From Gemmata obscuriglobus (GTDB lineage: Bacteria > Planctomycetota > Planctomycetia > Gemmatales > Gemmataceae): a DNA stretch of 32,000 nucleotides. The position numbers were made by a program, and so were the translations under genes. The stretch is taken from contig NZ_CP042911.1 in the NCBI RefSeq assembly GCF_008065095.1, positions 4,830,001 through 4,862,000 of the forward strand, written 5' to 3'. The notes under the pieces are model-generated. The model saw only the letters and a program-made list of their open reading frames with translations, was not told the origin of the DNA and did not search any database. Shown in pieces: positions 1-18,027 of the stretch. The first letter of the stretch is position 1; each line of letters opens with the position of its first letter.

Positions 1-18
1 GTAGGTGTTGGGAGAAAC
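1..18 (-). repeat. Island-specific ~36-nt repeat, copy A (cut by window edge)
   Basis: GTAGGTGTTGGGAGAAAC matches the GTAGG-NN-TTGGGAGAAAG half of the repeat family (reverse complement of CTTTCTCCCAA-NN-CCTAC). The rest lies left of the window. Confidence 0.6.
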
Positions 19-43
19 TTAGAGTTGAAGGACGCCATCGCCC

Positions 44-409
44 TCAGTCCCACACCGGTGGTCGGTAGGCCATCACGGAAGCTGCGGTCAAGAGTGCGGC
101 CAGAGCGGTGCCGAGAACGAACAAAGTCCAACGGGCTCCAACCCCTCCCGTGCGAAACACCAGCAGCCACCCTTCAACCCAAGGACCAGCCCCGAAGCAC
201 AAGTTGGCACCCAGCCCGTACACCACGAGGTAGATCAGGAACTCAACGTCAGACAGCAGTGACCAGTCGCGACCCACGGCCAGGGTGAGCACCACGACCG
301 CAGCCAGAATCAGGTTGTACGCCAGCCGGAACCGCTCCCAGGACAGGAACACGGCCCTTGCCGAAGGCTCACTCGCCGGGCTCTCCTGCCACCAATCGGG
401 CTCGCTCAT
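44..409 (-). CDS. Small integral membrane protein (121 aa), function unknown
   Basis: In-frame ATG at 409 preceded by GGAGG (TGGAGGTTCCA-ATG). Product MSEPDWWQ... has 3-4 long hydrophobic stretches. The longer ORF-track start (595) has a non-protein-like N-terminus. Confidence 0.6.
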   Translation of the reverse strand: MSEPDWWQESPASEPSARAVFLSWERFRLAYNLILAAVVVLTLAVGRDWSLLSDVEFLIYLVVYGLGANLCFGAGPWVEGWLLVFRTGGVGARWTLFVLGTALAALLTAASVMAYRPPVWD

Positions 410-539
410 TGGAACCTCCACACACGCACCTGCCACTCGGCCCTCAACACCGAAGCAGACGGATCGGTCCGACACAGACCTCAGCCAAGCACCATCTACC
501 GATCGCGGCAGCTTCCGACGAGAGATTGGGCAACTCTGG

Positions 540-1382
540 CTACCGGCCACAACCTGGACAAACAAAAGCCCTTGAGCGATCGTAAACCGTACCACAGTAC
601 CAACAGGATGCCACTCGTGGTTGCCCAGACCCTTTAGAACTCCCCACCACCATCATTACGATCAGGAGAACCACTGTGAGCGATGCCAGTACCTTTCCGA
701 CTTGCAGAGCACCCTCAGTCCACGAACAGCCTCCCGCCCAAGCTACTGCACACGAAACGAGAACAAAACCACATCCGAACAGGACAAAGAACAGTAATAT
801 TTTAGCCCGCCTAAACTGATCCGGGTCACGGTGACCGAGCAACAAACCGCCCCCACAAACCAACAGGAGAGCGAGCAACCCACCAACAAACCACAAGCCA
901 AGATTATTGGCCTCTTCGCTTTCTACCTTTGCCTTTCGGGTTCTGACCCTCCCCCGCACTTTCGGTTGTTGCTCCTTCTCGGCACCGTCTACAAGCTCGA
1001 ATTGTACCGGGAGCACCAGCCGCCCTGGAACTGTACGTTCCTCGGGGGACTGCGAGGTGGAATAAGACTTAACTAGAATCCCGAGTCGAGGTGAGCTTGA
1101 CGGAGACGGCACGACAATCGCCTGACCACATCTCAGACAGTCAACTTCCGCACCAGCACTCTGACCATCCACCTTCAACTCCATTAAACAGGACGGGCAG
1201 AGGAACTCGATTCGGGGTTTGGGTGAAGGAGCGGGCGGTTGCGGCGGTGGGGACACTGGTGCGGCGGAAGCACCCGGAACGGTGACCGCGTTACTGCACT
1301 TCGGACAGGCAACCGTCGCACCGGCCCGATCGGCACCGAACGTCAGGCGTACTTTGCAGGCGGGGCAGTGGACAGTGGGCAT
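540..1382 (-). CDS. Membrane protein with three CxxC...CxxC zinc-ribbon motifs (280 aa)
   Basis: ATG at 1382. Motifs CPACK...CPKC, CPSC...CLRC and C-terminal CWYC...CPGC. A central block of about 3 hydrophobic helices. MJ0042-type zinc-ribbon look. No functional homolog recognised. Confidence 0.6.
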   Translation of the reverse strand: MPTVHCPACKVRLTFGADRAGATVACPKCSNAVTVPGASAAPVSPPPQPPAPSPKPRIEFLCPSCLMELKVDGQSAGAEVDCLRCGQAIVVPSPSSSPRLGILVKSYSTSQSPEERTVPGRLVLPVQFELVDGAEKEQQPKVRGRVRTRKAKVESEEANNLGLWFVGGLLALLLVCGGGLLLGHRDPDQFRRAKILLFFVLFGCGFVLVSCAVAWAGGCSWTEGALQVGKVLASLTVVLLIVMMVVGSSKGSGQPRVASCWYCGTVYDRSRAFVCPGCGR

Positions 1383-1553
1383 GGGGGCGAACCACGGCTT
1401 GGGGAGCGGACCGGGGAGTTGCCAGACTAGCGAACGGCGACACTAGCGTAAAGGAACGTTAGGCAACCACCGTCGATCCGGAAGAGGCAAACGAGAGAGC
1501 CGGGGAGCGAGCACCGTCACCGACGGATCAGAGGATCGGGCCAGCCAAAACCC

Positions 1554-1589
1554 CTACCTTTCTCCCAACCCCTACTTGCATCTCGATCC
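1554..1589 (+). repeat. Island-specific ~36-nt repeat, copy B
   Basis: CTACCTTTCTCCCAACCCCTACTTGCATCTCGATCC, identical over 36 nt to 16143-16178. Intergenic. Confidence 0.9.
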
Positions 1590-1601
1590 CCGGCCCCCGG
1601 C

Positions 1602-1799
1602 TCAGCACTTGGCAGGCAGAGGAATCTTCTTCAACTGCGACCACACCAGATCCAGGTTGGCCCCAACCTCGGCGATCTCCTCCGGACTCCACTCCACAGC
1701 CATGCCACCGTTCCAGACGGGCCGGACCAGGGCTTCGAGGTGTTCGAGGATCGGTGCGAGCGGACAGGGCGGCGAATCAGAAGACTCGATCGGGTCCAT
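1602..1799 (-). CDS. Hypothetical protein (65 aa)
   Basis: ATG at 1799 (MDPIESSDSPPCPLAPILEHLEAL...). Strongly G/C-biased third codon positions in this frame. The overlapping plus-strand ORF 1576-1893 is R/S-rich and not protein-like. No obvious SD. Confidence 0.45.
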   Translation of the reverse strand: MDPIESSDSPPCPLAPILEHLEALVRPVWNGGMAVEWSPEEIAEVGANLDLVWSQLKKIPLPAKC

Positions 1800-1958
1800 A
1801 ATGACGGGAGTGGGGCAGTCGGACGAGGGCGTAAAGGACTGGCGAGGGTTGGCCACGGTGGGCTCCTGCGAGCGGGATCGGACAAGCCGGTAAAAGCCTC
1901 CCAAGCAGTATGCAAAATTCCAATTTAGTACGCAAGTAGATACCGACGATTTTTCAGT

Positions 1959-2279
1959 TTATTCCGCCTCTTCCTTCTCGTCCGGTTTTTTCATTTGCAA
2001 GTCATCGCAGTCTCTGAACTGGTCAAGGCTGATTTCGAGCGACTTTGAAATTGCGATAAGCACCGGCACCGAAGGCTTGCGGGCGGCGGTCTTTGATGTG
2101 AATCCCTTGAGAGTCTGGTAAGCTATGCCCGATCGACTCGCCAGATCTGCAAGCGAAATGTCCTTCTGCACCAAAAGCGTTCGCAGAGTTTCGCGGAAAG
2201 TGGCCATCTCAACCCCGGTAGGTACTGGGCAAGCGTACCCGCTGCTCTCTGAGGGGCAAGGAATTTGCTGAATGGCCAT
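1959..2279 (-). CDS. XRE/Cro-CI-type helix-turn-helix transcriptional regulator (106 aa)
   Basis: ATG at 2279 preceded by GGGAGAGGACA. Typical HTH_3 pattern FRETLRTLLVQKDISLADLASRSGIAYQTLKGF. Acidic C-terminal tail. Confidence 0.75.
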   Translation of the reverse strand: MAIQQIPCPSESSGYACPVPTGVEMATFRETLRTLLVQKDISLADLASRSGIAYQTLKGFTSKTAARKPSVPVLIAISKSLEISLDQFRDCDDLQMKKPDEKEEAE

Positions 2280-2441
2280 TGTCCTCTCCCGGTTTCCTGC
2301 CCCGCCTACCTGCTCAAGCGTCCCCACCCCCAAAAGCGGACTCCAAAACGAAAAGCCACCACCAGGGTCTCCCCCAGCAGTGGCTTTGCAGCGGTCAGCG
2401 AATTGAGGTAATTTGGAGTCCGGTGCCCCTTTCGGCACACG

Positions 2442-2804
2442 CTACTTACCCTTCACGCGATTCATTACAACGTCCTTGCCCGTATCGGAAATGACTACCA
2501 TCTCGGAATCCGTAAGTTTCTTGATGGTCACGGTGGACTTCTCCTCCTTTCCGCCGGGCTGGGCGTTCACAGTGAGCTTGTTGCCGTCGAGCTTATAAGT
2601 GCCATCGAACGCGACCTCCTCCTTCCCATCCCCGTGCCTCAACACCAGCTTACCGCCCTTCAGGAACTCGATGACCGCGAAGTCCCGCTCTTTGGTTGTC
2701 CACTTGCCCAGCAGTTTGGCCGGATCGATCTTCTCGTCCTTCTTGTCGTCGGCCACGAGCGGCCCGCAGAACACCAGCACCAAGCAGCCCATCAGCATCC
2801 GCAT
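2442..2804 (-). CDS. Small secreted protein, lipocalin-like pattern (120 aa)
   Basis: ATG at 2804 (MRMLMGCLVLVFCGPLVA signal-like N-terminus). The pattern GKW...F.kgGkl...DGtYklDGnkLt is typical of small lipocalin-like secreted proteins that are expanded in Gemmata-like planctomycetes. Confidence 0.6.
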   Translation of the reverse strand: MRMLMGCLVLVFCGPLVADDKKDEKIDPAKLLGKWTTKERDFAVIEFLKGGKLVLRHGDGKEEVAFDGTYKLDGNKLTVNAQPGGKEEKSTVTIKKLTDSEMVVISDTGKDVVMNRVKGK

Positions 2805-2815
2805 CTTGGTATCCC

Positions 2816-3394
2816 TTATTTTTTGCCTGGGGTGAACGATTTGAGCACCTTCACTTCGCCATTTCCCGAGACCCTTTTCACGAGCCCTACACCGCGGGCG
2901 TACCATTCGTGATAAATGGGTGGTGGCCCCAGCATCCCTCCCCGGAAGCTGCACTCGATCCGAACAGCCTGGAACACGCCAGCCTGCACTTCCACCCCCT
3001 TCACCTCGACGACCTCCCGCCTCGGCTTTGATGACGTGTAGTTCGGGCTCCAGTAATCACCCTTCTCGACCGGGGCACGCAGCAGCAACTCGGGCTTCTC
3101 GCACTCTTTCCCCGACCAACCCACCCGAGTCAGCCGAGTAGCGGACACCAGCACCTCTTCGTAGGGAACGTTCTTACCGCCGACCACCTGATCGACACTC
3201 ACTAACTGGCCCTCCGGGTCGTCCCGGACCTTCGAGATCACGTACCTCTCCTCTTTACCTTCCACGTCGTACACCCACTTCGTGCCGACCGCGGTGGGCC
3301 AGAAGGGCTCCTCTTTCATCAGGTGTTTGGGAACCGGTGCGGCACTGGCCACAGACAGGGTGATGCAGAGTGCGACCAGGGGCGTCCATCGCAT
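2816..3394 (-). CDS. Secreted hypothetical protein (192 aa)
   Basis: ATG at 3394 preceded by GGAG. Signal peptide MRWTPLVALCITLSVASA-AP. Alternative GTG start at 3415. Confidence 0.6.
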   Translation of the reverse strand: MRWTPLVALCITLSVASAAPVPKHLMKEEPFWPTAVGTKWVYDVEGKEERYVISKVRDDPEGQLVSVDQVVGGKNVPYEEVLVSATRLTRVGWSGKECEKPELLLRAPVEKGDYWSPNYTSSKPRREVVEVKGVEVQAGVFQAVRIECSFRGGMLGPPPIYHEWYARGVGLVKRVSGNGEVKVLKSFTPGKK

Positions 3395-3510
3395 GTCAAG
3401 CTCCAGAAAGGTCACTCCAGTCTACCGCGGTGCCGTGCAGTACCAAAAGCGAAAAGACCGCCACCAAGGGGGTTAGCCCTCAGCAGCGGTCAGTGTCGAG
3501 TAACTCCGTC

Positions 3511-3540
3511 TAGATGCAAGTAGGAGTTGGGAGAAAGGTA
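3511..3540 (-). repeat. Island-specific ~36-nt repeat, copy C
   Basis: TAGATGCAAGTAGGAGTTGGGAGAAAGGTA is the reverse complement of the consensus core. Intergenic, 117 nt upstream of the 3394 start. Confidence 0.85.
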
Positions 3541-3610
3541 TTGATAGAAGGCCCAGAAGACCTGAGTGTTTTTGGCAGATCCCTTTGTCTCATCCAGAGG
3601 GTGGCCGAGG

Positions 3611-3910
3611 CTACTTCAGGAAGTACAGCGGACCTTCTTTAAGCATTGTCATCCCGAGCAGTACGTAGACAAATAAAATACAGCCGACAAGCACGAGGGC
3701 CAGCATTCTGTTTTCCCAAAGTACAGACTCTCGCGACCATACCAACTTGAACGGCATTGGAGGGTCTTGATGATATTGAGCGGGCTGAACCGTCGGAACC
3801 GGCTTCTCAACGAACATCCCCCCTCCGCACCGACCGCATTTGACTGTAACGGGGGGCTCCAGGTCACAATCGAGCGAAATGTGGCAGTGCGGGCATTCAA
3901 CTACGATCAT
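3611..3910 (-). CDS. Zinc-ribbon plus single-TM protein (99 aa)
   Basis: ATG at 3910 preceded by AGGTGA. N-terminal CPHC...CGRC zinc ribbon and a C-terminal hydrophobic helix (MLALVLVGCILFVYVLLGMTM). Last gene of the tightly packed operon. Confidence 0.6.
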   Translation of the reverse strand: MIVVECPHCHISLDCDLEPPVTVKCGRCGGGMFVEKPVPTVQPAQYHQDPPMPFKLVWSRESVLWENRMLALVLVGCILFVYVLLGMTMLKEGPLYFLK

Positions 3911-3920
3911 ACATCACCTG

Positions 3921-4526: not shown

Positions 4527-4529
4527 CGG

Positions 4530-5273: not shown

Positions 5274-5281
5274 GGAAACTC

Positions 5282-6550
5282 CTATCGAAGTCGAGGTGAG
5301 CGGGGAACGATGACCCGAGACGGCTTGATGGTTGGCGTGCTGGCTGTTGGCTTCGTCGGGATCGGCTTCACGGGAGCGGTCTTTGGGGGAGGAAGTGCGA
5401 CGGGGTGTGAAGCTTCCGGTGGAGTAGGCTTGGGCGGCTCTTTCTGCGAATCGTTGGCCTGCTGTAACCACCGCGAATTGAGTAACTGACTGTTTAAGTC
5501 ACTGAAGACTCCCGCAGTGCCCTTGAGCAAGTCCGCATCCGACACGATGGCCTGCGAATGAGTTGCCTCGATTCTCACCGCTCCCCACACCGCCGCACCC
5601 GGAAGGTGAACAGGCAGTTGGCGGTCCTCGAACCTGTACCTCACGCCCGTACCGTCCCTGAACCCCTCGACCACGATCCCGTCCCGCACGAACCCAAACG
5701 GGCACGGCAGCAAAAGCCGCTGTCGCAAGTCGTCGGGTGAAGTGGCCGTGCTGTAGAGCAGGTCGGATCGGAAAACGGCCTCCCCCTCGACGATGATTTT
5801 GGTCAAGTGCTGGTCGTCGATGGAGTGGATCATCGAGAACCGGTTGCTGAGCAGGGGCGACGCCACCGATCCCGCATTGGGGTCCGTGGACACGAGGTTC
5901 TCTTCCGACTCCCGAACGCAAGTCTCAATGTCAAACTGGATGATAAACGTGTCCGCATCGCCCTGGGAACTGAGGATCTCGCAGGAGATCGGCTGGGGTC
6001 CGTTGCGGGCGTCCGTGTGGTAGGAGAACCGCGTCGGTGACATCAGCAACAGTTCCGAATCCGCAGCCGAGCCGGCGAACACGAAGAGGGGCTTGCGTGG
6101 CGTGAGGAGCCGCTCTCGAATGGCCCGGACGGTCAAGGGAACGGGGTTGGCCACGGGCTCCAACTTGAACTGGCGGACCGCATTCGGAGACCGAGCACCG
6201 AGCCCCGAGGGGGGAGCGTCACCGAACACCTCGTCACCGCTCGGGGAGTGAAAGACTTTGGTGATGGGCACGTTCACGTTGGGCGGGACTGCGGCTGCGG
6301 CTCGGCTGACTCCACTGGGGGCCGTCCTGATCGCGTCATCGCCGGAATACACCAACTCGTCCGTCTTCCGATACGACACCGGCGGACCGGCCACGTCTCT
6401 CACCTCGGACTGCCCGTTCACGGTGCAGACGCCCGAAACTCGGTGCCGGGTGTACAGGTAGTCCGTCTTCGTGTCATCGTAGACCGCCTCCATCCGGTAC
6501 TCATTGATCGTCCCCATCGAGAGGTGTATGCCGTTGTACACAATATCCAT
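5282..6550 (-). CDS. Hypothetical protein (422 aa) with proline-rich C-terminal tail, tail-like operon
   Basis: ATG at 6550 preceded by TAGGAGG. The globular-looking body ends in PKPTPPEASHPVALPPPKTAPVKPIPTKP. No family recognised. Its position would fit a distal-tail or hub protein. Confidence 0.55.
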   Translation of the reverse strand: MDIVYNGIHLSMGTINEYRMEAVYDDTKTDYLYTRHRVSGVCTVNGQSEVRDVAGPPVSYRKTDELVYSGDDAIRTAPSGVSRAAAAVPPNVNVPITKVFHSPSGDEVFGDAPPSGLGARSPNAVRQFKLEPVANPVPLTVRAIRERLLTPRKPLFVFAGSAADSELLLMSPTRFSYHTDARNGPQPISCEILSSQGDADTFIIQFDIETCVRESEENLVSTDPNAGSVASPLLSNRFSMIHSIDDQHLTKIIVEGEAVFRSDLLYSTATSPDDLRQRLLLPCPFGFVRDGIVVEGFRDGTGVRYRFEDRQLPVHLPGAAVWGAVRIEATHSQAIVSDADLLKGTAGVFSDLNSQLLNSRWLQQANDSQKEPPKPTPPEASHPVALPPPKTAPVKPIPTKPTASTPTIKPSRVIVPRSPRLR

Positions 6551-6560: not shown

Positions 6561-7343
6561 CTAGAGTTGGCTGCGGGTGAGGATGCTGCCCATCGGCCTG
6601 CCCTGAAACCGCAGTGGTTCGGTAGCTTCGGGGTGTGGCTGGCTGGTGACGGTCACGGTGAAGGGTGCGGAGTGAAGTGGTGACGCCAGAGAAGCCGAGC
6701 CGAGATGGGGGAGAGCAACTGCCGGCCTCGGAAGTCGGGCGGGGTGCGTGTCCGGTACGGCTACCCGGTGTCGCTCGCCCCAGCCTTCAAACCTTGACAC
6801 TCGGGATTCAGACTGCCCCCTCTGGTCGAGAGCCAGTTTAGCCGTCGAAGTGTGAGGAGCGGGCGGTGTAGTGGGGCGTGAAAAAGCGGGCTGAACCACC
6901 GAGGCTCTCTCTCGCAACACCAGGGGAGCAGCCGGGGGTGCAGAAGGGGCAAGATTCGCAGGAGGTTGAAGAACGCGAGGTGAAGGTGGAGGGGTGGAAG
7001 GGCTGAGAGGGCTCGGAAGGGTCAACGGCTTTATTGGGAGCGTACTGGGTGCTCTCTCTGGACGTTTCAGGCTCGGAACTGGAATCAAGGGCGTTCGGGC
7101 AGGAAGGTCCAGTTTCTTCGGCGGGGTGACTCGGGGAAACTGCCGCTCGGGAGGGCTGAGAGGGCGGATCGAAGGGGAAGAAGCTCGGCTCGAACTGTCA
7201 CCCAACCGAATACCACGAAACGGAACTACCGGCGGAAGTTGCGTACTGCGGGACGGGGAAGGCGGTGCCAGGACACGGGATCGCAACTCTGCTCGGACTC
7301 TCGACTGCTGCTCGTAATCCCCGTCTCTTTTCGCTGTCGCCAT
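6561..7343 (-). CDS. Proline/serine/arginine-rich low-complexity protein (260 aa) in the slot normally held by a tape-measure gene
   Basis: ATG at 7343, stop 10 nt before the next start. About 50 prolines in 260 residues by my count. In the pre-IS sequence the ATG lay 3 nt after the stop of the upstream ORF (TAGCAAATG). Confidence 0.5.
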   Translation of the reverse strand: MATAKRDGDYEQQSRVRAELRSRVLAPPSPSRSTQLPPVVPFRGIRLGDSSSRASSPSIRPLSPPERQFPRVTPPKKLDLPARTPLIPVPSLKRPERAPSTLPIKPLTLPSPLSPSTPPPSPRVLQPPANLAPSAPPAAPLVLRERASVVQPAFSRPTTPPAPHTSTAKLALDQRGQSESRVSRFEGWGERHRVAVPDTHPARLPRPAVALPHLGSASLASPLHSAPFTVTVTSQPHPEATEPLRFQGRPMGSILTRSQL

Positions 7344-7348
7344 TTGCT

Positions 7349-7358
7349 ACCCCTGTTC
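7349..7358. repeat. Target-site duplication, left copy (ACCCCTGTTC)
   Basis: Identical 10-mer directly abuts both IS termini (7349-7358 and 8609-8618). Confidence 0.9.
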
Positions 7359-9729: not shown

Positions 9730-10302
9730 TCACTCTGGCGTGAAGCTGCCGAACTTGCCACCATCCTCAGTGAAGAGGGGAAAAGCCCGAGTCGCCGGAT
9801 CAAACACCCCGTTGCACTCGAAGAGGATGGAGACCGAGTGGGTGCGGGTGCCAGCAGAGCTTTCCGAGGAGCGGCGTGGAATGGCTGAGTAGTAGAGTCT
9901 GCCACGCGGGATCGCAGGGTCACCCGAGAACGCAGTCCCACCGAAGGCAAACGTCATCAGTAGCTGGAAGTCCGTTTTGCCAATGGTGAGCGTGCCGTGA
10001 TCGGTCTGGAAATCGGTGTAGTCAATCGGCGAATTGGTGACCTGCGGAGAGCCTCGACGGAGGACGTTGTAGGTGTTCCAGTTGAAGCGGTTGAGGGTGA
10101 GGGTGACGATCTCCTGTCTGCGGTCACGCACGTAATCTGTTGCCAGCGAACGGCCGCCCAAATCATTATACACTGGTAAGAATGAATCCGTAGCCTCCCA
10201 CTCCGGGCTACGCTCGCAAGTACCCAGATAACGCCAAGCAGAATCGGCGGGCTTCTTAATGTAGGTGTCAACTGGTCCCAGACAGGGAAAAACGGCAGGC
10301 AT
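9730..10302 (-). CDS. Structural protein paralog A (190 aa), possible tail-tube-like protein
   Basis: In-frame ATG at 10302 preceded by GGAG (GTGGAGTTCTCC-ATG). Ends F-G-S-F-T-P-E. First gene after repeat copy D. Confidence 0.45.
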   Translation of the reverse strand: MPAVFPCLGPVDTYIKKPADSAWRYLGTCERSPEWEATDSFLPVYNDLGGRSLATDYVRDRRQEIVTLTLNRFNWNTYNVLRRGSPQVTNSPIDYTDFQTDHGTLTIGKTDFQLLMTFAFGGTAFSGDPAIPRGRLYYSAIPRRSSESSAGTRTHSVSILFECNGVFDPATRAFPLFTEDGGKFGSFTPE

Positions 10303-10460
10303 GGAGAACTCCACGGACAGAAGTGCGGAAGGGAAGTGAACGAGCACAGAGCCAGAGCCGAGAGGAAGACACTACGGCCGACCTCAGCACTAGCTCTGTG
10401 GATGGAGGAGAATGAGTTAACAGGATAGGTGATGGAGCAGAGGTGACGCGGAACGGGATC

Positions 10461-10497
10461 GAGGATAGAGATGCAAGTAGGTCTTGGGAGAAAGGTA
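10461..10497 (-). repeat. Island-specific ~36-nt repeat, copy D
   Basis: GAGGATAGAGATGCAAGTAGGTCTTGGGAGAAAGGTA. Its left 21 nt are identical to copy H and its core is identical to copy F. Confidence 0.9.
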
Positions 10498-10525
10498 AAG
10501 AATAGAGTCCACCCCGAAGCACACC

Positions 10526-11146
10526 CTACATCCACTCATCCATGCCGGTCGCGGGTGGGCTAGTCCGTCGGTGGGTAGCGATTTTGTGTGCCATGCCGAG
10601 ACTGGAGATCATGCCTTGAGCAGAGGGCCAGTGCAAAGCGTCACCGGCGAAACGCGGAATGAAGTGGTGCTGGGCCGGGGTCTCGTGCTCCCAACTCGCC
10701 AAGTAGCCCGGCAGGTCGGTCACGTCCACACCCCACGGCAGCACCGGAGGCTCCTGCTCACCAGTGTACTCGGCCATAGGGTCGTGTTTGATAGACCAAG
10801 GGCGGTTGGGGTCGTCGGATCGCTGCGAGGGGTACTCGTGCTGGAGCCAGTGGGCGAGCGACTGGTGAAAGTCGGCCATGTCGTGGTGATCCTGCTCTCG
10901 CAGGTAGTCGGCGTAGGCGTTCCTGGTGATGTGGTCGAAAGGTGACTTGTCCAGGGCTTTCAGAAAAGCTTTGTTCTCCGGTCCCAGCTTACGCGGCTGT
11001 TGCTCGGGAGGCGTTTTGGTTCGCTTTGGTTTGGTGTACTTGCCGGTAGTGGGGTCTACCATCGGCCCGATCCCAGTGAACGGCTTTTTGGCAAAATGGA
11101 GTGCCTTGTTGTACGATTTGGCGTAATTGCGATTTGAACGATCCAT
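10526..11146 (-). CDS. TIGR02996-like (Gemmata repeat-companion type) domain protein (206 aa)
   Basis: ATG at 11146 preceded by AGAGG. The motif FLKALDKSPFDHITRNAYADYLREQD resembles the LVYADWLxExGD signature seen in 18624-19277. The ORF also stays open upstream through the pentanucleotide repeat to ATG 11344. Confidence 0.55.
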   Translation of the reverse strand: MDRSNRNYAKSYNKALHFAKKPFTGIGPMVDPTTGKYTKPKRTKTPPEQQPRKLGPENKAFLKALDKSPFDHITRNAYADYLREQDHHDMADFHQSLAHWLQHEYPSQRSDDPNRPWSIKHDPMAEYTGEQEPPVLPWGVDVTDLPGYLASWEHETPAQHHFIPRFAGDALHWPSAQGMISSLGMAHKIATHRRTSPPATGMDEWM

Positions 11147-11155
11147 AAAAACCTC

Positions 11156-11225
11156 TGAAGTGAAGTGAAGTGAAGTGAAGTGAAGTGACGTGAAGTGACG
11201 TGAAGTGAAGTGAAGTGAAGTGACG
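11156..11225. repeat. Pentanucleotide tandem repeat (TGAAG/TGACG) x14
   Basis: Eleven TGAAG and three TGACG units are read directly. The repeat starts 9 nt upstream of ATG 11146 and reads as (CTTCA)n on the coding strand. Confidence 0.95.
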
Positions 11226-11301
11226 GAAGAAGTGTGGAAGCGTAGCCGACTCAGATCGATAGCCGAAGCTGCTGAAGAGGCGGGGCGGCTTCGGGGGAGC
11301 G

Positions 11302-12103: not shown

Positions 12104-12123
12104 ATTTTGAGAATTCTCAAAAT
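12104..12123. promoter_or_regulatory. Perfect 20-bp palindrome, operator-like
   Basis: ATTTTGAGAATTCTCAAAAT is its own reverse complement. It abuts repeat copy E in the divergent intergenic region. Confidence 0.6.
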
Positions 12124-12153
12124 CCTACCTTTCTCCCAAGACCTACTTGCATC
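12124..12153 (+). repeat. Island-specific ~36-nt repeat, copy E
   Basis: CCTACCTTTCTCCCAAGACCTACTTGCATC. 12129-12153 is a perfect 25-bp inverted repeat of 12211-12235. Confidence 0.9.
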
Positions 12154-12201
12154 AATACGAACACACTCGACCCCAGAATGACGATTCAGAGAGGCAACTT
12201 C

Positions 12202-12235
12202 GAGGATCGAGATGCAAGTAGGTCTTGGGAGAAAG
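12202..12235 (-). repeat. Island-specific ~36-nt repeat, copy F
   Basis: GAGGATCGAGATGCAAGTAGGTCTTGGGAGAAAG. Faces copy E across a 57-bp spacer. Confidence 0.9.
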
Positions 12236-12245
12236 CTGGCGTTTT

Positions 12246-12369
12246 GAGACGGCAGAGACGGCAGAGACGGTGATTTTTGGGGAACAGTTCCTCTTTTCTC
12301 TTCTTTCTTCAAAACATGGTCAAGGAAAGAGTTTTGGGAAAACGCCGTCTCTGCCGTCTCTGCCGTCTC
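12246..12369. repeat. Iteron-like inverted arms (GAGACGGCA x2.8) flanking a 74-bp AT/pyrimidine-rich spacer; possible origin or operator
   Basis: GAGACGGCAGAGACGGCAGAGACGG (12246-12270) and its exact reverse complement CCGTCTCTGCCGTCTCTGCCGTCTC (12345-12369). The spacer contains TTCCTCTTTTCTCTTCTTTCTTC. Confidence 0.7.
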
Positions 12370-13382: not shown

Positions 13383-13411
13383 CCCCACCCCACTCACAGA
13401 AGGACAGACAT

Positions 13412-15160
13412 ATGGCAAAGAAAAAGGTCACGAAAGCAGACATTCAGGGCCAGTACGAGGTCTTCCGGTCGCTAGGCATCCGGCTGGTCAGGTCGAAGTC
13501 CGGGGAGCTGTTCCTGGCCACCAGCCCGACCGGCAAGCCCGGGGGGAGTGTGGAACTACACCCCTACGATCTGGCTGAGTCGTGTGAGGAGATCAAATGG
13601 GTACTGAGAGACGCGGGCAAAGCCATTGACATGCGACTGGTGGCCGAAGCGGTCAAGGGACTCGTCCGCAGTACCAAGAAAAGTCCACCTGAAATGGTGT
13701 CGCGTCGTGTCGCCGAGCGGGACGGGAAAATCTTCGTGGACCTGTGCAACTCCGAGCGACAGGTAGTGGAAATTGCGGCTGACGGGTGGCGAGTCACCAC
13801 CGACTGTCCGGTTCTCTTTCACAGGCCGCTCCAAGCTCTACCCCTGCCGGTCCCGGTACAGGACGGCTCCATTCAGCGATTGCGGGAGCTGTTCAGCATT
13901 CTCGACGAACCGAGCTGGATTTTGGTGCTGGGCTGGCTGAGCACCACCCTGAAGGAGCACTGCGACCACCCGTTCTTGTCGATCCTGGGTCCGCCGGGCT
14001 CGGGAAAAAGTGCCCTTACTAAGTTTGCGTACTGCACGATCGATCCTCGCGAGGCGAAGGGGCTGCAGATGCAGCAGAACGCAGAGGATTTGCAACTCAG
14101 TGCTTTCAACCGCTGGGTACTCCCGCTCGATGAGGTCGATAGCCTCCCGCCGGAAAAATCCCGGATCGTGGCGACCATCTGCACGGGCGGGGCTCTTGAA
14201 AAGCGAAAGAAGTACGAGAATACCGAAGTCGTATGTGCTGTAATCAATCGCCCGGCAATCATCAACGGGCTAGAGGCAGGGGAGTGGCTACACGAGGAGC
14301 GAATCCGGGACCGTGCGATTCCCGTGGCTCTCGGTCGGGTGCGGCCCGAAGCCAGTGTTGAGGACGGAGATCTTATCAGGGCGTTCGAGCGACATCACCC
14401 GGAGATACTCGGCGGCCTTTTCACCATCGTTTCACAGGCACTCAGAGGCATTCGGGATGGAGAGGTGACAGCTCGTCACTCCCTGCGAATCAAAGAGGCC
14501 ATGACGTGGGCGGATCGCTGCGTGCACGCTGCGGGGTACTCGAACGGGGAGTTCACCCGACTGGTGACGGAAGCACACGCCAGGATCGTTGAGAGGGTGG
14601 CCGAAGAGTGGTCCCTACTCGACCCACTACTGAAAGTGGCTGGATCGGGGTTCCAGGGCAGTCCGACGGAGCTTCTGGACAAGCTCAACAGCATGGTCGA
14701 GCGGAAGGGGCGGGATTGGCCGAAGAGTTCAAGCCAACTGACCCGAACGATCAACCAGCACGTTGAGTACTTAGAAAAGCGGGGCGTCCGGGCTGAGCAC
14801 ACCAAGGGCCAGCAACGATTCTGGGTCATTCGGTCGGTCCCGAGTTTCGCTCAACAGAGTGCCAACTCAGTGAATGCTGCCAAACCGCTGGCACCACTAT
14901 CCGAAGGCGAGCAGTCAGACCTAAAGTCGAAGCTCCTTCGGTGGGCCGATTTTGCAGACAAAATCGATATCTGCTTCACTCACCGGGACTCCAGCAACAC
15001 GCTATATGGTCGATTTGCAGAGGCGGCATCGATAGCCCTGAAGAGGTCTTTAGAGCCAGACCGCACGCTGCGAATACCTGATGACGAGTTTCTATCGCTC
15101 GATACAGCAAGCGAGTTACTACTTGTCGAAGTTAATCCAAAAGCTGAGGGCAAAAATTGA
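13412..15160 (+). CDS. P-loop NTPase, SF3-helicase-like replication protein (582 aa)
   Basis: Walker A ILGPPGSGKS, Walker B VLPLDEVD, then a beta-strand ending in N (VINRPAIIN, motif C-like). The large N-terminal domain and this position are typical of phage/plasmid primase-helicase or initiator genes. Confidence 0.55.
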   Translation: MAKKKVTKADIQGQYEVFRSLGIRLVRSKSGELFLATSPTGKPGGSVELHPYDLAESCEEIKWVLRDAGKAIDMRLVAEAVKGLVRSTKKSPPEMVSRRVAERDGKIFVDLCNSERQVVEIAADGWRVTTDCPVLFHRPLQALPLPVPVQDGSIQRLRELFSILDEPSWILVLGWLSTTLKEHCDHPFLSILGPPGSGKSALTKFAYCTIDPREAKGLQMQQNAEDLQLSAFNRWVLPLDEVDSLPPEKSRIVATICTGGALEKRKKYENTEVVCAVINRPAIINGLEAGEWLHEERIRDRAIPVALGRVRPEASVEDGDLIRAFERHHPEILGGLFTIVSQALRGIRDGEVTARHSLRIKEAMTWADRCVHAAGYSNGEFTRLVTEAHARIVERVAEEWSLLDPLLKVAGSGFQGSPTELLDKLNSMVERKGRDWPKSSSQLTRTINQHVEYLEKRGVRAEHTKGQQRFWVIRSVPSFAQQSANSVNAAKPLAPLSEGEQSDLKSKLLRWADFADKIDICFTHRDSSNTLYGRFAEAASIALKRSLEPDRTLRIPDDEFLSLDTASELLLVEVNPKAEGKN

Positions 15161-15255
15161 AGTGCGGGAACAAAGAAACCACGTGCGGCTGGTGCGAGAA
15201 GCTGGAGCAGCTCGATCTCATTTCGGGCTCAAACCTACAACTGCCTACCGTGTGA
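15157..15255 (+). CDS. Short Cys-rich ORF (32 aa, TTG start overlapping the upstream TGA); possibly the true N-terminus of the next gene via a frame change
   Basis: TTG AAG TGC GGG AAC ... encodes KCGNKETTCGWCEKLEQLDLISGSNLQLPTV-stop. The TTGA overlap with the helicase stop suggests translational coupling. Below the ORF-track size cut-off. Confidence 0.3.
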   Translation: MKCGNKETTCGWCEKLEQLDLISGSNLQLPTV

Positions 15256-15316
15256 CCGAACCTCTGATGTAATAGAGTGCGAATGCAACAAGTGCAAAAA
15301 AACCTATCACGAGAAT

Positions 15317-16099
15317 GTGATCAGAACCAAGAAGTGTGGCTTTAAGGTGGTGGAAGGACGATCTTGCTGCCCACACTGCTTCTACAAAGCCAACGACGGC
15401 TTCAAGAGTCGTGACCCAAATGGCATCCAAGAGGGTCAACGTAAACTCCGCGACACCCAAGGAAAACCCGCAATTGGCACTCCACCGACTCCGCGAGAAG
15501 CGAGGGCAATTTGTGCTTATGCTCTGGCCGAAACTTTTATGAAAGCAAACAAAGCGGACCCTCTAAGTCAGGATGACCTTCTGAACCGCCTGACGGCCAA
15601 GGGTACCGAATGCGTTTTTCGTTTTGTCCCTTCGACACAAGACATGGTAATTCCCAACTTTCGCACAAGTTACAATTGCTGCTTTGAGGTGCCAAGGGGG
15701 TTCGTAGGATACTGTTGGAAATGTTACAAGCAGATTCTAACAGATATCTATACAGAGCGTGAACAATCACCTGAGTTCCTTGAGTACAGTGAAGGACCAA
15801 TCGAAGCTGCAGCTAAGCCCGGTCTTAACCCAAGCCAGATCCTCCTAGACCCTCTCCCTTTACTGCTGCCGCCGCTCAACAACCTGACACAGCAGCAACA
15901 GGACGTTCTTTTGATGAGTCTAGGACTGCACCAGGAGTATGGCGGGGAGCTGTCCGATAACGAGATCGCCAGCCTCCTCAATATCTCTCCCGGGAACGTC
16001 CGCTCTACCAAGAGCAGGGCAAAGACACAATTGAGTGCCGATCCGGAGCTAGCAACCCTTTTTGCCAAGATATCCAGGCGTCAGACCACTGACGGGTGA
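15317..16099 (+). CDS. Cys-rich protein with C-terminal sigma-70 region-4-like HTH (at least 260 aa)
   Basis: The C-terminus LTQQQQDVLLMSLGL...LSDNEIASLLNISPGNVRSTKSRAKTQL matches the sigma70_r4_2 pattern. The first canonical start is GTG 15317, but the frame is open and Cys-rich from about 15239 (NCLPCDRTSDVIECECNKCKKTYH). Confidence 0.6.
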   Translation: MIRTKKCGFKVVEGRSCCPHCFYKANDGFKSRDPNGIQEGQRKLRDTQGKPAIGTPPTPREARAICAYALAETFMKANKADPLSQDDLLNRLTAKGTECVFRFVPSTQDMVIPNFRTSYNCCFEVPRGFVGYCWKCYKQILTDIYTEREQSPEFLEYSEGPIEAAAKPGLNPSQILLDPLPLLLPPLNNLTQQQQDVLLMSLGLHQEYGGELSDNEIASLLNISPGNVRSTKSRAKTQLSADPELATLFAKISRRQTTDG

Positions 16100-16142
16100 C
16101 ACTCGCAGAGTAGCGGTGTTGGGAGCAAGCGGACATCAAACT

Positions 16143-16180
16143 CTACCTTTCTCCCAACCCCTACTTGCATCTCGATCCTC
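16143..16180 (+). repeat. Island-specific ~36-nt repeat, copy G
   Basis: CTACCTTTCTCCCAACCCCTACTTGCATCTCGATCCTC. Ends 17 nt before the TTG 16197 start. Confidence 0.9.
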
Positions 16181-16196
16181 TACCCCAAGGACTACA

Positions 16197-16529
16197 TTGA
16201 CTACAGACGATCACACTTTGCACGCCCTCTCCCACCCTTCCCTTCAGGCCCTTCTTCCTGCCCGCGACCACGGCAAGCCTTACACAGCAAATCGACTGGC
16301 TGATTGGTGCCGAAGGGGACGCCGGGGGTTGGATGGAGAGCAGGTGAATTTGAGGGCTGAGAAGCTGGGAGGGCAATATATGACTAGCGTCACAGCTTTA
16401 CGGGAGTTCCTTGAGAAGACAGGCCTGAGCGTGGAGGATGACGATGAGGAGTTTCACGACTTCTACTACCCGCCACCACTACCGATTCCACTCTCAGTCC
16501 ATACTTTCGCAGCAAAGCACTATCGTTGA
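16197..16529 (+). CDS. Excisionase/MerR-like HTH protein, DUF1580-like (110 aa)
   Basis: TTG at 16197 preceded by AAGGA. The motif KPYTANRLADWCRRGRRGLDGEQVNLRAEKLGGQYMTSVTALREFLEK resembles the planctomycete DUF1580 pattern (T..RW...G..g..Le...vGg...TS.eAl.RF). The start codon is uncertain. Confidence 0.5.
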   Translation: MTTDDHTLHALSHPSLQALLPARDHGKPYTANRLADWCRRGRRGLDGEQVNLRAEKLGGQYMTSVTALREFLEKTGLSVEDDDEEFHDFYYPPPLPIPLSVHTFAAKHYR

Positions 16530-16568
16530 TCCATCATAAGAGCGACCAACTCCAGTTACTAATGTGAT

Positions 16569-17477
16569 TTAACAACCCGCCAAACTGATTAACAGGTTAA
16601 TGTGGGCACACGTAGCCCCGATCATATGCTCAGCGTACTCTCGGCCAGCTATGTAAGAAGGCTTTGGCCCCTTGCCGTGTGCGTCCCCCATCTTGTTGCG
16701 AATCATACCAACTGCCTTGAATATCTCCGTGTAATGAGGCGGAAACAAGTCGTGTTTTCGGCAAATTTCAACGTAAGTGGAGCAACTACCGGCGTTAGGG
16801 TCGAAGGTCCATCCCTTGAAATCACAGATCGTCCGGAGAACGCTTTCGAATGCTGATCCACAGGATGTGATAGCCCCAGCGTAGTCACCGTTTTTGACTT
16901 CCTCGAATGCGTTAAGCAATTCCCCGTTGGCGACAGAGAATCGCTCCCCGGCTAACACTTCAAGTGCGGGCTTAACGACAATTTCGTGAGTTGTCCTCTC
17001 GCCTTTCTTGATAAGACGTGGGTACTCCACTCGCTGAACGTTTGTATCAAGTTGCCGACCGTACAGAGTAGCTCGCTCGCCAGTATCACGCCATACTGGT
17101 GCAGTCAGTTCGTATCCAACCCCTTCCTCTTCAAACATCTGGTTAATCCAGGCTACGGCACCACAGGCAGCGTCTCCAGTACCAACCGCGTTTGTGCGAA
17201 AACACATCTCGATAAACTCAATTGCCTCATCATCTACACACGCAAGAAAGTGCTGAGCAGCAGGGTAGGCCTGATTAAAGTTTGCTTTTAACGAACCATA
17301 CTTTTGCAACGCCAAGTCCGCAACTTCCCCCAGGAGACGCTCGAAGCTGTAACTTATCTCGCCCCAGCCATTCCTATGATTTTTAAAGAACTGGAGCACC
17401 CGCATCCGGACTCTCTCGGAGAGCGAATACGTGTAACGTGCAATGGGAACTTCCTGCTTCTGTGCAGACCACCCCAT
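16569..17477 (-). CDS. HEPN-domain protein, AbiJ-like abortive-infection candidate (302 aa)
   Basis: ATG at 17477 preceded by AGGAGG. C-terminal Rx6H motif IRNKMGDAHG (16677-16700). N-terminal YSLSERVRMRVLQFFKN resembles AbiJ N-terminal domains. Stands alone, convergent with its neighbour. Confidence 0.6.
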   Translation of the reverse strand: MGWSAQKQEVPIARYTYSLSERVRMRVLQFFKNHRNGWGEISYSFERLLGEVADLALQKYGSLKANFNQAYPAAQHFLACVDDEAIEFIEMCFRTNAVGTGDAACGAVAWINQMFEEEGVGYELTAPVWRDTGERATLYGRQLDTNVQRVEYPRLIKKGERTTHEIVVKPALEVLAGERFSVANGELLNAFEEVKNGDYAGAITSCGSAFESVLRTICDFKGWTFDPNAGSCSTYVEICRKHDLFPPHYTEIFKAVGMIRNKMGDAHGKGPKPSYIAGREYAEHMIGATCAHINLLISLAGC

Positions 17478-17920
17478 GTCAGCCTCCTGCTTATTGGCAA
17501 AACGAACACATCAGTAAGGGGCCGGTAGTGAACTAAGCCCCTTACAGTTAAACGATTGACATCGATCGCGACAGTACGATAACGCACTGAAATAGAATGG
17601 AGTAGCCCTGCCTCGTCCCCTATAGGGCATTTTTCCGACTAAGACAGCAGCAGAATTGGAACAATCCGCAAATGCCACCAGCCTCGTTTCCTTGGCGTTC
17701 GGGAGTGGATTGGTTGGTCATGGGACCGCTGCTCTCAATTACTTTCTTTGGTGCATTACCTCCACAAGGGATTCACCAACCTGAAGATCTCGCCCTACTC
17801 CCTCTTCTTGTTCCCAAAGATACTGACTGCTTACCCACCCTAGCATCTTGGTGTTCAGTTTGCGGGTCAAAAGACTGACTCCGTTTGAAGATGGGGACAT
17901 CCTGTTGAGGGATCTGCGAA

Positions 17921-17955
17921 GAGGATAGAGATGCAAGTAGGAGATTGCGAGAAAC
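17921..17955 (-). repeat. Island-specific ~36-nt repeat, copy H (degenerate right half)
   Basis: GAGGATAGAGATGCAAGTAGGAGATTGCGAGAAAC. Confidence 0.75.
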
Positions 17956-17990
17956 AGAGAGCTGGCGGTTACAGAGGTGAGGACTGAACT

Positions 17991-18027
17991 CTAACCTTTC
18001 CTCCACCACCTACTTGTAGCACGATCC
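17991..18027 (+). repeat. Island-specific ~36-nt repeat, copy I (degenerate)
   Basis: CTAACCTTTCCTCCACCACCTACTTGTAGCACGATCC. Back-to-back with copy H across a 35-bp spacer. Confidence 0.65.

Follow-up and report, generated by a model that had tools for sequence, protein, structure and literature searches.

Several families of short, repeated signals are known from phages and other mobile elements. Phage-specific promoter sets, recognised by specificity factors that the phages themselves encode, include the 23-bp class promoters of T7, those of SPO1 (gp28 and gp33-34), the MotA-box middle promoters of T4 and those of PBSX (Xpf). The lambda pR'-qut-tR' late module and the RfaH ops/JUMPStart leaders occupy one or two sites per genome. 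The conserved inverted repeats of phiC31 are 17-bp palindromes that act as repressor operators scattered in intergenic regions, and the start-associated sequences of Cluster K phages keep a constant distance and contain the ribosome-binding site. For planctomycete hosts, to our knowledge, neither promoters nor phages have been characterised. The stoperators of Cluster A mycobacteriophages (L5 gp71 and relatives) are 13-14 bp long, asymmetric, intergenic and orientation-linked (PMC9283540).

Here we analyse a repeat in a 32,000-nt stretch of Gemmata obscuriglobus contig NZ_CP042911.1 (the window). It is a bipartite, asymmetric unit of ~35 bp, made of TTTCTCCCAA, a gap of 2-3 nt, CCTACTTGCATCT and an invariant A three bases further (consensus cTAccTTTCTCCCAA-N2-3-CCTACTTGCATCT-nnA). 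The copies reside in a degraded phage-derived island integrated at tRNA-Leu. G. obscuriglobus has 13 of them, nine in the window and four to its left, and the orthologous island of G. algarum JC673 has 17.

Detection and sequence of the repeat

All nine window copies listed in a first-pass annotation were recovered by pattern searches, a repeat finder and an nhmmer profile (Table 1). The full 36-mer matched with 0-2 mismatches at 1554(+), 10463(-), 12204(-) and 16143(+), and its 3' half additionally at 17923(-) and 18009(+), against a chance expectation of 0.00-0.01 in shuffles; the repeat finder contributed further members at 1-37, 3502-3556 and 12120-12168. A profile of 29 copies, searched against the extended island together with 12.4 kb of flanking host DNA, returned nine window matches (25.7-42.1 bits, E 5.7e-07 to 4.3e-12), no weaker matches up to E = 10 and zero copies in the host flanks, a clean two-class result that also confirmed the absence of copies to the right of the tRNA. 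The annotated 36-nt identity of the copies at 1554 and 16143 holds, as does the perfect 25-nt inverted repeat of 12129-12153 and 12211-12235, whose arms extend to 39 nt at 90%. The gap, described earlier as a central dinucleotide, is 2 or 3 nt long, the longer form occurring in 17930-17956 and in five JC673 copies. The unit has no internal hairpin, as had been noted (MFE 0 kcal/mol, z-score 0.22), and downstream of it the sense strand is rich in C and poor in G (skew 0.29, P 6e-5; upstream skew 0.13).

Table 1 Copies of the repeat and associated features (window coordinates; negative values lie left of the window)
Feature	Position	Strand	Remarks
Copy A'	-77..-37		Left of window; degenerate inverted partner of A
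Copy A	1..24	-	nhmmer match truncated by window edge, full span -15..24; complete copy A present in L008 at 1565-1590
Copy B	1553..1592	+	Perfect core; orientation exception, pointing antisense into a 66-aa ORF (~1602-1802, -) and the CI-like HTH gene (1959-2279, -); same orientation in JC673
Copy C	3507..3543	-	Perfect core; 98 nt upstream of gene 2816-3415(-); terminator-like hairpin 3491-3456 directly after the copy
Copy D	10460..10499	-	Perfect core; between gene 10526-11146(-) and the tail-like block, which begins at 10302/10347(-)
Copy E	12124..12159	+	Left arm of face-to-face pair at main divergent junction; toward replication operon (12626 onward)
Copy F	12201..12237	-	Right arm of face-to-face pair; toward leftward operon (start 11960 or 12061)
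Copy G	16141..16180	+	36 nt identical to B; core ends 26 nt before TTG start 16197, which has an AAGGA Shine-Dalgarno
Copy H	17921..17956	-	Degenerate, 3-nt gap, 3 core mismatches; toward AbiJ-like gene 16569-17477(-)
Copy I	17994..18029	+	Degenerate, 5 core mismatches; toward HNH gene at 18078, with hairpin and T-run (18038-18057) in between; well preserved in JC673
Cro/CI-type HTH_3 gene, candidate repressor	1959..2279	-	No element copy upstream; preceded by strong terminator 2387-2352(-)
Candidate DNA-binding factor	15156..16099	+	Cys-rich N-terminus, region-4-type HTH
tRNA-Leu(CAA)	19425..19505	-	Right island boundary
Copy-free boundary	2280-2441		Strong terminator at 2387-2352 instead
Copy-free boundary	11147-11301		Holds (TGAAG)13 array
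Copy-free boundaries	15161-15538 and 16530-16568		

Distribution and conservation

The island encodes a tyrosine integrase, an SF3 primase/helicase, a CI-like HTH protein, an HNH protein and a phage tail-like module, and a nine-gene block of it is syntenic with metagenomic phage-like contigs carrying a head-tail adaptor. The 3' 53 nt of the tRNA-Leu (19425-19477) recur at the opposite end of the island in JC673, beside a tyrosine integrase. The pattern search proposed in the first-pass annotation, which had called the element island-specific, found it confined to this island and its JC673 ortholog. Across 185,579 species genomes there were nine exact matches, every one of them between 136 and 176 kb on JC673 contig 1, and three chance singles; IMG/VR gave 0 matches to the motif, a JGI metagenome scan only three unrelated singles, and an exact-pattern scan of the rest of the JC673 genome no copy outside the island.

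Divergence between the two species is about 7% overall and reaches about 15% in the copy flanks; copies are near the consensus in both. Orthologous cores are 90.8% identical versus 83-86% for the flanks, and 14 of 29 copies are mismatch-free across the 24 specified core positions, where the divergence rate of the flanks predicts ~15%. We count this excess of core over flank conservation as selection, which would be keeping the copies. Covariation of the element with module gain and loss between the two species, in matching orientation, is supported: the AbiJ-like gene and copy H occur in G. obscuriglobus only and are missing from JC673, and JC673-specific modules of 5.1 kb and 3.1 kb bring their own copies facing their genes. 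A metagenomic phage-like relative, L013, has a different 30-45-nt repeat of its own, which occupies six gaps between genes; one of these gaps corresponds by synteny to that of copy D, and another contains an inverted pair beside HTH genes.

Placement and orientation

The proposal that copies mark every gene-block boundary was overstated, because at least four boundaries have none (Table 1). All nine window copies are non-coding on this gene map, which is ~82% coding, so that P is ~2e-7; the earlier description of all copies as intergenic is qualified by copy G, which lies within the open frame 16062-16529, a gene in one older annotation. The reported bias toward the next gene's 5' end, with the copy at 1554 as an exception, is present but not near-absolute: it holds for 10 of the 13 G. 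obscuriglobus copies and for 22 of 30 when both genomes are combined, the latter count including orthologous copies, which are not independent. These 5'-facing copies stand 26-550 nt from the gene start; the 8 of 30 that face a gene 3' end are B, A', -4549 and five in JC673. Solo copies are more numerous than paired ones, the back-to-back pairs being H/I and, in JC673, 160400/160468 and 154543/154615. Copies C and I are each followed, after 17-22 nt, by a terminator-like hairpin with a T-run; both hairpins are conserved in JC673, where copy 148583 sits at a convergent junction immediately after a terminator. The main junction also holds 9-bp GAGACGGCA iterons in inverted triplets and an 18-bp palindrome.

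Candidate reader and function of the repeat

The protein at 15317-16099, suggested earlier as a sigma-region-4 reader, is not a sigma factor: its region-4-type HTH is weak (Pfam 28.8 bits; below all NCBIfam cut-offs), region 2 was not found in the product, and an exhaustive HMMER search of 1.84 billion representatives gave five partial matches and no ECF sigma. The JC673 version of the longer factor (15156-16099) is intact at ~313 aa; relative to it, a 1-nt frameshift in G. obscuriglobus severs the Cys-rich N-terminal part, and the NCBI annotation covers 15539-16099 only (186 aa). This orphan Cys-rich/region-4-HTH protein is the best, albeit weak, candidate for a specificity factor.

Judging from sequence, we tentatively favour, at a little short of an even chance, the reading that the element is a private transcription signal of the tRNA-Leu island, combining a promoter core with a built-in regulator site. 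It would drive most non-lysogenic transcription units of the island, with initiation just downstream of the block by RNA polymerase that a specificity factor encoded in the island directs or assists; the 2- or 3-nt gap would match the latitude of +/-1 nt in spacer length that two-module promoter recognition allows. Expression in the quiescent state may explain why the CI-like HTH gene lacks a copy, and copy B could oppose this gene through convergent transcription. Inverted pairs at divergent junctions would be back-to-back or face-to-face promoters, and those between co-directional genes could form a long stem in read-through RNA, insulating neighbouring units. The promoter/operator hypothesis raised at first pass is partly supported: it keeps specificity, asymmetry, placement, orientation bias and covariation on its side and loses its boundary rule and its sigma reader; it fits better than the tested alternatives because the element is island-specific, asymmetric, unstructured, non-coding, gene-facing and module-covarying. 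Also counted in its favour are the selection on the cores, the C-rich, G-poor strand downstream, the back-to-back pairs, whose close spacing leaves other promoters no space upstream of the elements, the island's phage gene context and, as an independent parallel, the separate intergenic repeat of L013; counted against it are the frameshift in the candidate factor and the convergent junction at JC673 copy 148583. By inspection, no -35/-10 geometry of sigma-70, sigma-54 or ECF type fits the conserved blocks, which are ~15 nt apart centre to centre with a would-be spacer conserved like the boxes, and a sigma-70 consensus scan found nothing at the copies. As promoters, the 8 of 30 copies facing gene 3' ends would yield antisense RNA.

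The main rival, which we judge somewhat unlikely, holds that all copies are operators or 'stoperator'-like sites bound by a repressor, for example the CI-like HTH protein or a two-domain monomer, an orientation-dependent block of initiation or elongation keeping the integrated island quiet. Many asymmetric intergenic copies whose orientation tracks transcription recall the Cluster A mycobacteriophage stoperators (PMC9283540), and copies D and G, each of which lies in a short gap separating co-directional genes and lacks an upstream terminator, suit such sites; paired copies facing both ways would block both directions, and restriction to the island resembles immunity-type specificity. However, the block is ~35 bp versus 13-14 bp, no other shared promoter-like motif stands alongside the copies, back-to-back pairs, with ~40 nt between their 5' ends, leave no room upstream for separate promoters, and the GAGACGGCA iterons and palindrome at the main junction form a separate, more operator-like array.

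The hairpins within ~20 nt after C and I, before the gene, would make a plain promoter self-defeating there and would instead be read through if the block, located at or just after the start site, were a qut- or ops-like processive antitermination leader that loads an island factor onto RNA polymerase. Its length beyond what a promoter needs and its C-rich, unstructured sense strand agree with this, but such a hairpin follows only 2 of 13 copies, NusG/RfaH-, Q- or N-like proteins were not detected in the island, and 13-17 sites per island contrast with one or two in known systems, which leaves antitermination distinctly unlikely. That the copies are module-exchange sites, homology patches or MITE-like repeat ends, their link to transcription incidental, is very unlikely, even though copies are found at most of the points where an insertion or deletion distinguishes the islands: copies 154543/154615 and 159540 enclose the JC673 5.1-kb module, the direct copies 146869 and 148583 enclose a 1.7-kb JC673 insert, a serine-recombinase insert lies 61 nt from copy -1347, the AbiJ replacement ends on its right at copy I, and the face-to-face arms have common variants and extended flanks. 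Mosaic joints at conserved regulatory sequences are expected in any case, however; the copies are restricted to one island, solo copies prevail, target-site duplications were not seen at the copies, and gene order is collinear between both islands, with no inversion between inverted copies. Most improbable is an RNA-level element, either a C-rich site that loads Rho (rut) where blocks end or an anti-Shine-Dalgarno-like leader. The sense RNA is C-rich, G-poor and unstructured, and ACCUUUCU and GAUCCUC, which we take to resemble pieces of the 16S 3' tail, were counted for it. Against it, only 5 of 13 copies come after a co-directional gene, so the unit is not a 3'-end element; the 26-550 nt to the start codon imply no fixed relation to ribosome-binding sites; and the SD-ATG mini-ORF on the opposite strand (8-100 codons) is not conserved.

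Comparison with known systems

The island repeat is short, intergenic and sometimes in inverted pairs, like REP/BIME and MITE repeats, but it is not genome-wide and has neither a hairpin nor target-site duplications. Like the phiC31 repeats and the Cluster K sequences, it is dispersed between genes, private to a phage-type element and linked to gene starts; it differs from them in its asymmetry and variable distance. Copies C and I, a block and then an intrinsic terminator before genes, and a signal longer than a core promoter are reminiscent of lambda qut and RfaH ops; unlike there, most island copies have no downstream terminator, and no Q-, N- or NusG-family protein was found in the island. 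With stoperators the element shares more than ten asymmetric intergenic sites, an orientation correlated with transcription and specificity to its own immunity group. Yet its block is bipartite and 35 bp long, its copies occupy larger gaps where units meet, not the interior of long operons, many of them form inverted pairs, and a homologue of the two-domain stoperator repressor was not detected in the island. Phage promoter sets differ from the island in three respects: it encodes neither a single-subunit RNA polymerase nor a bona fide sigma (region 2), its box geometry matches no sigma-70-family class, and about a quarter of its copies face gene 3' ends. It is like them in having many near-identical asymmetric copies private to one mobile genome, placed before transcription units and facing genes, and a small sigma-like or HTH factor encoded in the element itself.

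A conserved bipartite repeat confined to a mobile island

The phage-derived, tRNA-Leu-integrated island carries a ~35-nt asymmetric intergenic repeat (the element) that, judging from sequence comparison, is probably a cis-acting transcription signal of the island. Allowing up to three mismatches, the 36-mer recovered copies at 1554(+), 10463(-), 12204(-) and 16143(+), against a chance expectation of 0.00-0.01 in dinucleotide-preserving shuffles; its 3' half matched at 17923(-) and 18009(+), and a repeat finder independently placed 1-37, 3502-3556 and 12120-12168 in the same group, bearing out the copies listed in the first-pass annotation. A profile HMM built from 29 aligned copies was scanned over the island and over 12.4 kb of host sequence to the right of the tRNA gene; the host sequence contained none, as initially observed; the window gave nine matches (25.7-42.1 bits) and no weaker one up to E = 10. 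Also as first described, the copies at 1554 and 16143 share the same 36 nt, and 12129-12153 and 12211-12235 form a perfect 25-nt inverted repeat, whose arms we find to reach 39 nt.

Across 26, then 29, aligned copies the consensus reads cTAccTTTCTCCCAA, 2-3 variable bases, CCTACTTGCATCT and an invariant A three bases on, followed by a C-rich tail (TCGATCCTC or TAGACNCTC); in the alignment, conservation extends over ~33-35 nt in two boxes. G. obscuriglobus has 13 copies (-4549, -4411, -1347 and A' at -77 to the left, nine inside the window), and the profile scan found 17 in the orthologous island of Gemmata algarum JC673. The 24 specified core positions show zero mismatches in 14 of 29 copies, with ~15% of copies expected unchanged at the flank divergence of orthologous copies, and orthologous cores are 90.8% identical versus 83-86% for their 60-nt flanks. 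This conservation points to a family that is older than the species split and whose copies are held near consensus through selection or conversion. A lone half site resembling box 2 scores under the profile threshold (Table).

When 185,579 species genomes were scanned with TTCTCCCAANNCCTACTTGCA, nine exact matches appeared, all on JC673 contig 1 (136-176 kb); three further singles, in unrelated MAGs, are about as many as chance would give. All nine lie within the island and none in the scanned host flanks, which upholds the proposed island specificity and rejects a MITE or genome-wide dispersed repeat; the G. obscuriglobus scan covered the island and its host flank. IMG/VR held zero matches, JGI metagenomes only three unrelated singles, and no target-site duplications surround the inverted pairs. 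Over the 32-kb window, Rfam at gathering score identified tRNA-Leu(CAA) at 19425-19505 alone.

Table. Element copies and other features of the islands, their flank and their relatives. Positions refer to the window unless a contig is named (window position x = CP025958.1 position 3,190,374 - x); negative positions in the text lie left of the window.
Feature	Position	Strand	Remark
Copy A	1-24	-	
Copy B	1553-1592	+	
Copy C	3507-3543	-	
Copy D	10460-10499	-	
Copy E	12124-12159	+	
Copy F	12201-12237	-	
Copy G	16141-16180	+	
Copy H	17921-17956	-	
Copy I	17994-18029	+	
Box-2-like half site TCTACTTGCGTA (9/12)	1926-1940	-	between CI-like HTH gene and 66-aa ORF
Intrinsic-terminator-like hairpin and T-run	3456-3491	-	17-22 nt downstream of copy C, before next gene; kept in JC673
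Intrinsic-terminator-like hairpin and T-run	18038-18057	+	17-22 nt downstream of copy I, before next gene; kept in JC673
Intrinsic-terminator-like hairpin and T-run	2352-2387	-	between lipocalin-like and CI-like HTH genes; no element near
Perfect 18-bp palindrome TTTTGAGAATTCTCAAAA	12107-12124		adjoins 5' side of copy E
Inverted iteron arrays	12246-12270, 12344-12369		each three perfect 9-bp iterons GAGACGGCA; ~70 nt apart
(TGAAG)x13.6 microsatellite	11156-11223		immediately upstream of NCBI-called start of 10526-11146(-)
Cro/CI-type HTH	1959-2279		recognisable island gene
SF3 primase/helicase relative	13412-15160		recognisable island gene
AbiJ-like gene, HNH/NUMOD4 endonuclease, weak region-4 HTH protein, transposase fragment			other recognisable island genes
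Lipocalin-like/DUF3108-like paralogues	2442-3415; L008 6109-6837; L004 4180-4632, 6390-6974		small, secreted-looking
Segment missing in JC673 (1.25 kb)	7359-8606		DDE transposase fragment at 7381-7731
Large near-perfect hairpins	19860-19934, 20004-20140		host side of tRNA, just beyond island
Large serine recombinase	L008 2931-4484 (window -2900..-1347)		Resolvase + Recombinase domains
Repeat of metagenomic contig L013, ..CCAAYCCCCRCAGACCGCCCGGCACG..	L013 2951, 6209, 7629, 14769, 14894, 18556		30-45 nt; six intergenic gaps
(GGAGTG)n array	L013 14654-14705		at regulatory junction

The islands resemble decaying prophages

The sigma-like ORF matches a G. obscuriglobus protein at 100% identity, and the HNH gene puts the window on CP025958.1. 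The JC673 region is ~93% identical to the window and is bounded by 53 bp repeated from the 3' portion of the tRNA-Leu gene, beside a tyrosine integrase; in JC673 the region is therefore a 37-kb tRNA-integrated island. For G. obscuriglobus, the public assembly contig L008 adds 7.7 kb left of the window, holding four further copies, a large serine recombinase and an integrase. In family searches, island ORFs were mostly without a family; the recognisable genes are tabulated. A 422-aa protein (5282-6550) and eight neighbours are syntenic with metagenomic contigs resembling phage morphogenesis regions, which carry genes the size of a large terminase, a portal and a capsid gene, plus a head-tail adaptor match; the AlphaFold model of this tail-block protein (pLDDT 52) was unusable for structural identification. 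The Gemmata islands are without head genes, and INPHARED contains no related isolated phage by protein or DNA match. The missing head genes, an IS fragment, species-specific cargo and a regulator broken by a frameshift give them the look of prophages that are decaying or satellite-like; the segment missing in JC673, within the tail-like gene block, is an IS remnant and thus a sign of decay. Literature searches gave nothing usable on prophages of Gemmata or on the mapping of its transcription starts.

The two islands differ by modules, and these differences track element copies. The AbiJ-like gene and copy H occur in G. obscuriglobus only; JC673 has a 5.1-kb module entered from its D-orthologous copy and with another pair at the far end, a 3.1-kb module opening with a back-to-back pair, and a 1.7-kb insert between direct copies. 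The 3.1-kb module sits at the exact point of the (TGAAG)x13.6 microsatellite, in its stead. The serine recombinase, also restricted to G. obscuriglobus, is inserted directly downstream of an element copy, 61 nt off and convergent with it. The remaining gene order is collinear, with no inversion between inverted copies. Paralogous lipocalin-like and DUF3108-like genes recur in the island, each behind an element copy, and the leaders after copies A and C have GCTTTTGGTA..CTGCACGG in common. Beyond the island, two host-side hairpins (arms of 33 nt at 97% and 51 nt at 90%), the second matching JC673 inverted at 75%, may be a host repeat or terminator.

Copies mark gene starts more often than gene ends

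All nine copies are intergenic, as first described: on our own gene map they occupy the noncoding share of an island part that is ~82% coding (P about 2e-7). The accompanying claim that copies point toward the 5' end of the next gene held as a majority tendency (10/13 in G. obscuriglobus; 22/30 overall, a count that takes in orthologous copies, which are not independent) but not as a near-absolute rule. Sense copies lie 26 to ~550 nt from that 5' end. Copy B, already singled out as an exception, runs antisense, like its JC673 orthologue, into a 66-aa ORF and the CI-like HTH gene; the other exceptions are inner-facing members of inverted pairs between co-directional genes. Because a co-directional gene lies upstream of only 5 of the 13 copies, we reject a 3'-end signal. 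The sense strand is C-rich and G-poor for ~40 nt downstream (skew 0.29, P 6e-5), not upstream. The copies of back-to-back pairs have their 5' ends only ~40 nt apart, so any promoter of the divergent genes they serve must overlap the elements. The CI-like gene has no copy, and one JC673 copy sits at a convergent junction directly past a terminator.

A single unit has no internal hairpin, as initially stated (MFE 0 kcal/mol, z-score 0.22), and a stem can form solely between paired copies, which rejects an intrinsic terminator or REP-type repeat. An integron attC site is an imperfect internal palindrome that folds as single-stranded DNA beside an integron integrase; this reading is rejected here, as the unit does not fold and the island's recombinases comprise an ordinary tyrosine integrase, located at the att end, and the large serine recombinase of one species.

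The main divergent junction carries additional sites. The half-site TTTTGAGA of its 18-bp palindrome is found again where the iteron array begins, and it also flanks copy F. The iteron arrays, which occupy the interval from copy F to the helicase operon's first gene, may be a replication origin or operator, and AT-rich TATAT boxes lie nearer to the genes. These features are more operator-like than the element.

The tested promoter classes do not fit the element

Sigma-70 promoters combine TTGACA-like and TATAAT-like hexamers 16-18 nt apart; a consensus scan of 19.6 kb found 6 sites where 4.7 are expected, and no copy coincides with one. Inspection showed just one -10-like feature, (G/T/A)A(T/C)CCT, which is weak, follows the block and has a poor -35. 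The conserved boxes lie ~15 nt apart centre to centre with an equally conserved region between them, and ECF geometry does not fit them. Sigma-54 promoters place GG at -24 and GC at -12 with a fixed distance of 10 nt (TGGCAC-N5-TTGCA); box 2 contains TTGCA, with no GG at the needed distance on either strand (inspection). A T7-like single-subunit polymerase promoter, which needs a cognate polymerase gene in the same mobile element, was likewise rejected: Pfam, PHROGs and NCBIfam detected no polymerase domain among the island ORFs (none longer than 582 aa), and reverse-strand GGGAGA is directed away from genes. On the opposite strand, GAGGA-N6-ATG CAA GTA GG.. could be read as a Shine-Dalgarno sequence and start (MQVGLGRKV); we rejected these ORFs because they span 8-100 codons, conservation ends with the repeat and copies with a 3-nt gap shift the frame. 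Logan contigs starting inside copies (1583, 16149) begin exactly k-1 = 30 nt into the repeat and are thus assembly breaks, not transcription starts.

A sigma-70-family factor combines region 2, for core binding and -10 recognition, with region 4. The 15317-16099 product, proposed earlier as one candidate reader, showed a weak region-4 HTH alone (28.8 bits) and no region 2; it fell far under the cut-offs of all NCBIfam sigma models, had no PDB match, and yielded five partial matches and no ECF sigma in an exhaustive search of 1.84 billion representatives. The product is therefore not a sigma factor, and the promoter/operator reading of the first-pass annotation is partly supported. The JC673 form has 313 aa, a Cys-rich N-terminus with extra CxxC motifs and a TTG start overlapping the helicase TGA. 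In G. obscuriglobus, a 1-nt insertion (CAAACCTAC versus CAAACTAC; 15156-15320 versus 7242-7420 of the JC673 sequence L005) frameshifts the N-terminus, so the annotated 186-aa product is probably truncated or inactive. Helicase and sigma-like ORF are in-frame across one TGA in G. obscuriglobus and not in JC673; this species difference is the 1-nt indel, which rules out stop-codon read-through.

Phage-like relatives carry their own repeats or none

L013 encodes a homologue of the 422-aa protein with 39% identity and has its own intergenic repeat, with four copies facing genes and two facing gene ends, one at a position syntenic with copy D, and an inverted pair 55 nt apart beside small HTH genes. 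A (GGAGTG)n array lies at a regulatory junction of the same contig. Another relative, L012, has one inverted pair. Only CCAA-N2-CC is common to the element and these repeats, with ~5/13 further positions; this is not significant, and we treat the likeness as analogy only. L014, L015 and three IMG/VR relatives showed no repeated intergenic motif, which rejects the element as a general feature of the phage lineage. Private intergenic control repeats thus appear to arise repeatedly in the lineage without being universal.

Interpretation and relation to known systems

Within the transcription-signal reading, a promoter is a serious possibility to which we give somewhat less than an even chance. 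A promoter or promoter-operator best accounts for island specificity, strictly noncoding location, polarity, the lack of space at back-to-back pairs, covariation with modules and absence from the CI-like gene. Against a simple promoter speak the box spacing, the hairpins after copies C and I, the JC673 copy at a convergent junction, the non-sigma reader and the more operator-like features at the main divergent junction. A repressor site akin to the stoperator accounts for most of the same facts (PMC9283540), but the 35-bp size and back-to-back geometry are its weak points, and we consider it rather unlikely.

A qut- or ops-like antitermination signal would account for the two hairpins after copies C and I but for little besides. 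Recombination or MITE readings, which account for the indel boundaries, fail on island confinement and the absence of rearrangements, and RNA-level elements fail on the variable distances and the few copies behind co-directional genes.

A bolder form of the promoter reading, which we regard as improbable, is that the island bears a self-contained, orthogonal transcription system of a previously undescribed kind. The orphan Cys-rich (zinc-ribbon-like) region-4-HTH candidate would redirect planctomycete RNA polymerase to a 35-bp bipartite promoter without -35/-10 geometry, and inverted pairs would double as an insulator or terminator stem for read-through RNA, so that one motif would both start and delimit every transcription unit. 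If the unrelated L013 motif plays the same role, this would be a general design in an uncharacterised planctomycete phage lineage.

To our knowledge, almost nothing is known of promoters, transcription factors or phages in Planctomycetes, whose model organism is G. obscuriglobus. If the 35-bp signal controls the whole mobile island, it would offer a first way to study how such mobile elements become active in these bacteria, a candidate orthogonal promoter-factor pair for a sparse genetic toolbox and a marker for finding related islands. Its importance would rise sharply if the orphan factor were shown to control transcription that starts at the block; as the class is already known, only a new recognition mechanism would make the advance more than incremental.

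One known system for comparison is the stoperator: a monomeric immunity repressor binds this asymmetric site of 13-14 bp, whose orientation tracks transcription direction (PMC9283540). The element differs in size, with ~33-35 nt in two boxes, and its sense orientation (22/30; 10/13 in G. obscuriglobus) is counted over copies that include non-independent orthologues. Were it a repressor site, stoperator-type genome-wide silencing would extend beyond actinobacteriophages. Phage-private intergenic control repeats are already known as a kind of feature; this case is new in its sequence, its length, its two-box form, the frequency of inverted pairs, an orphan protein as candidate factor and a host among the planctomycetes.
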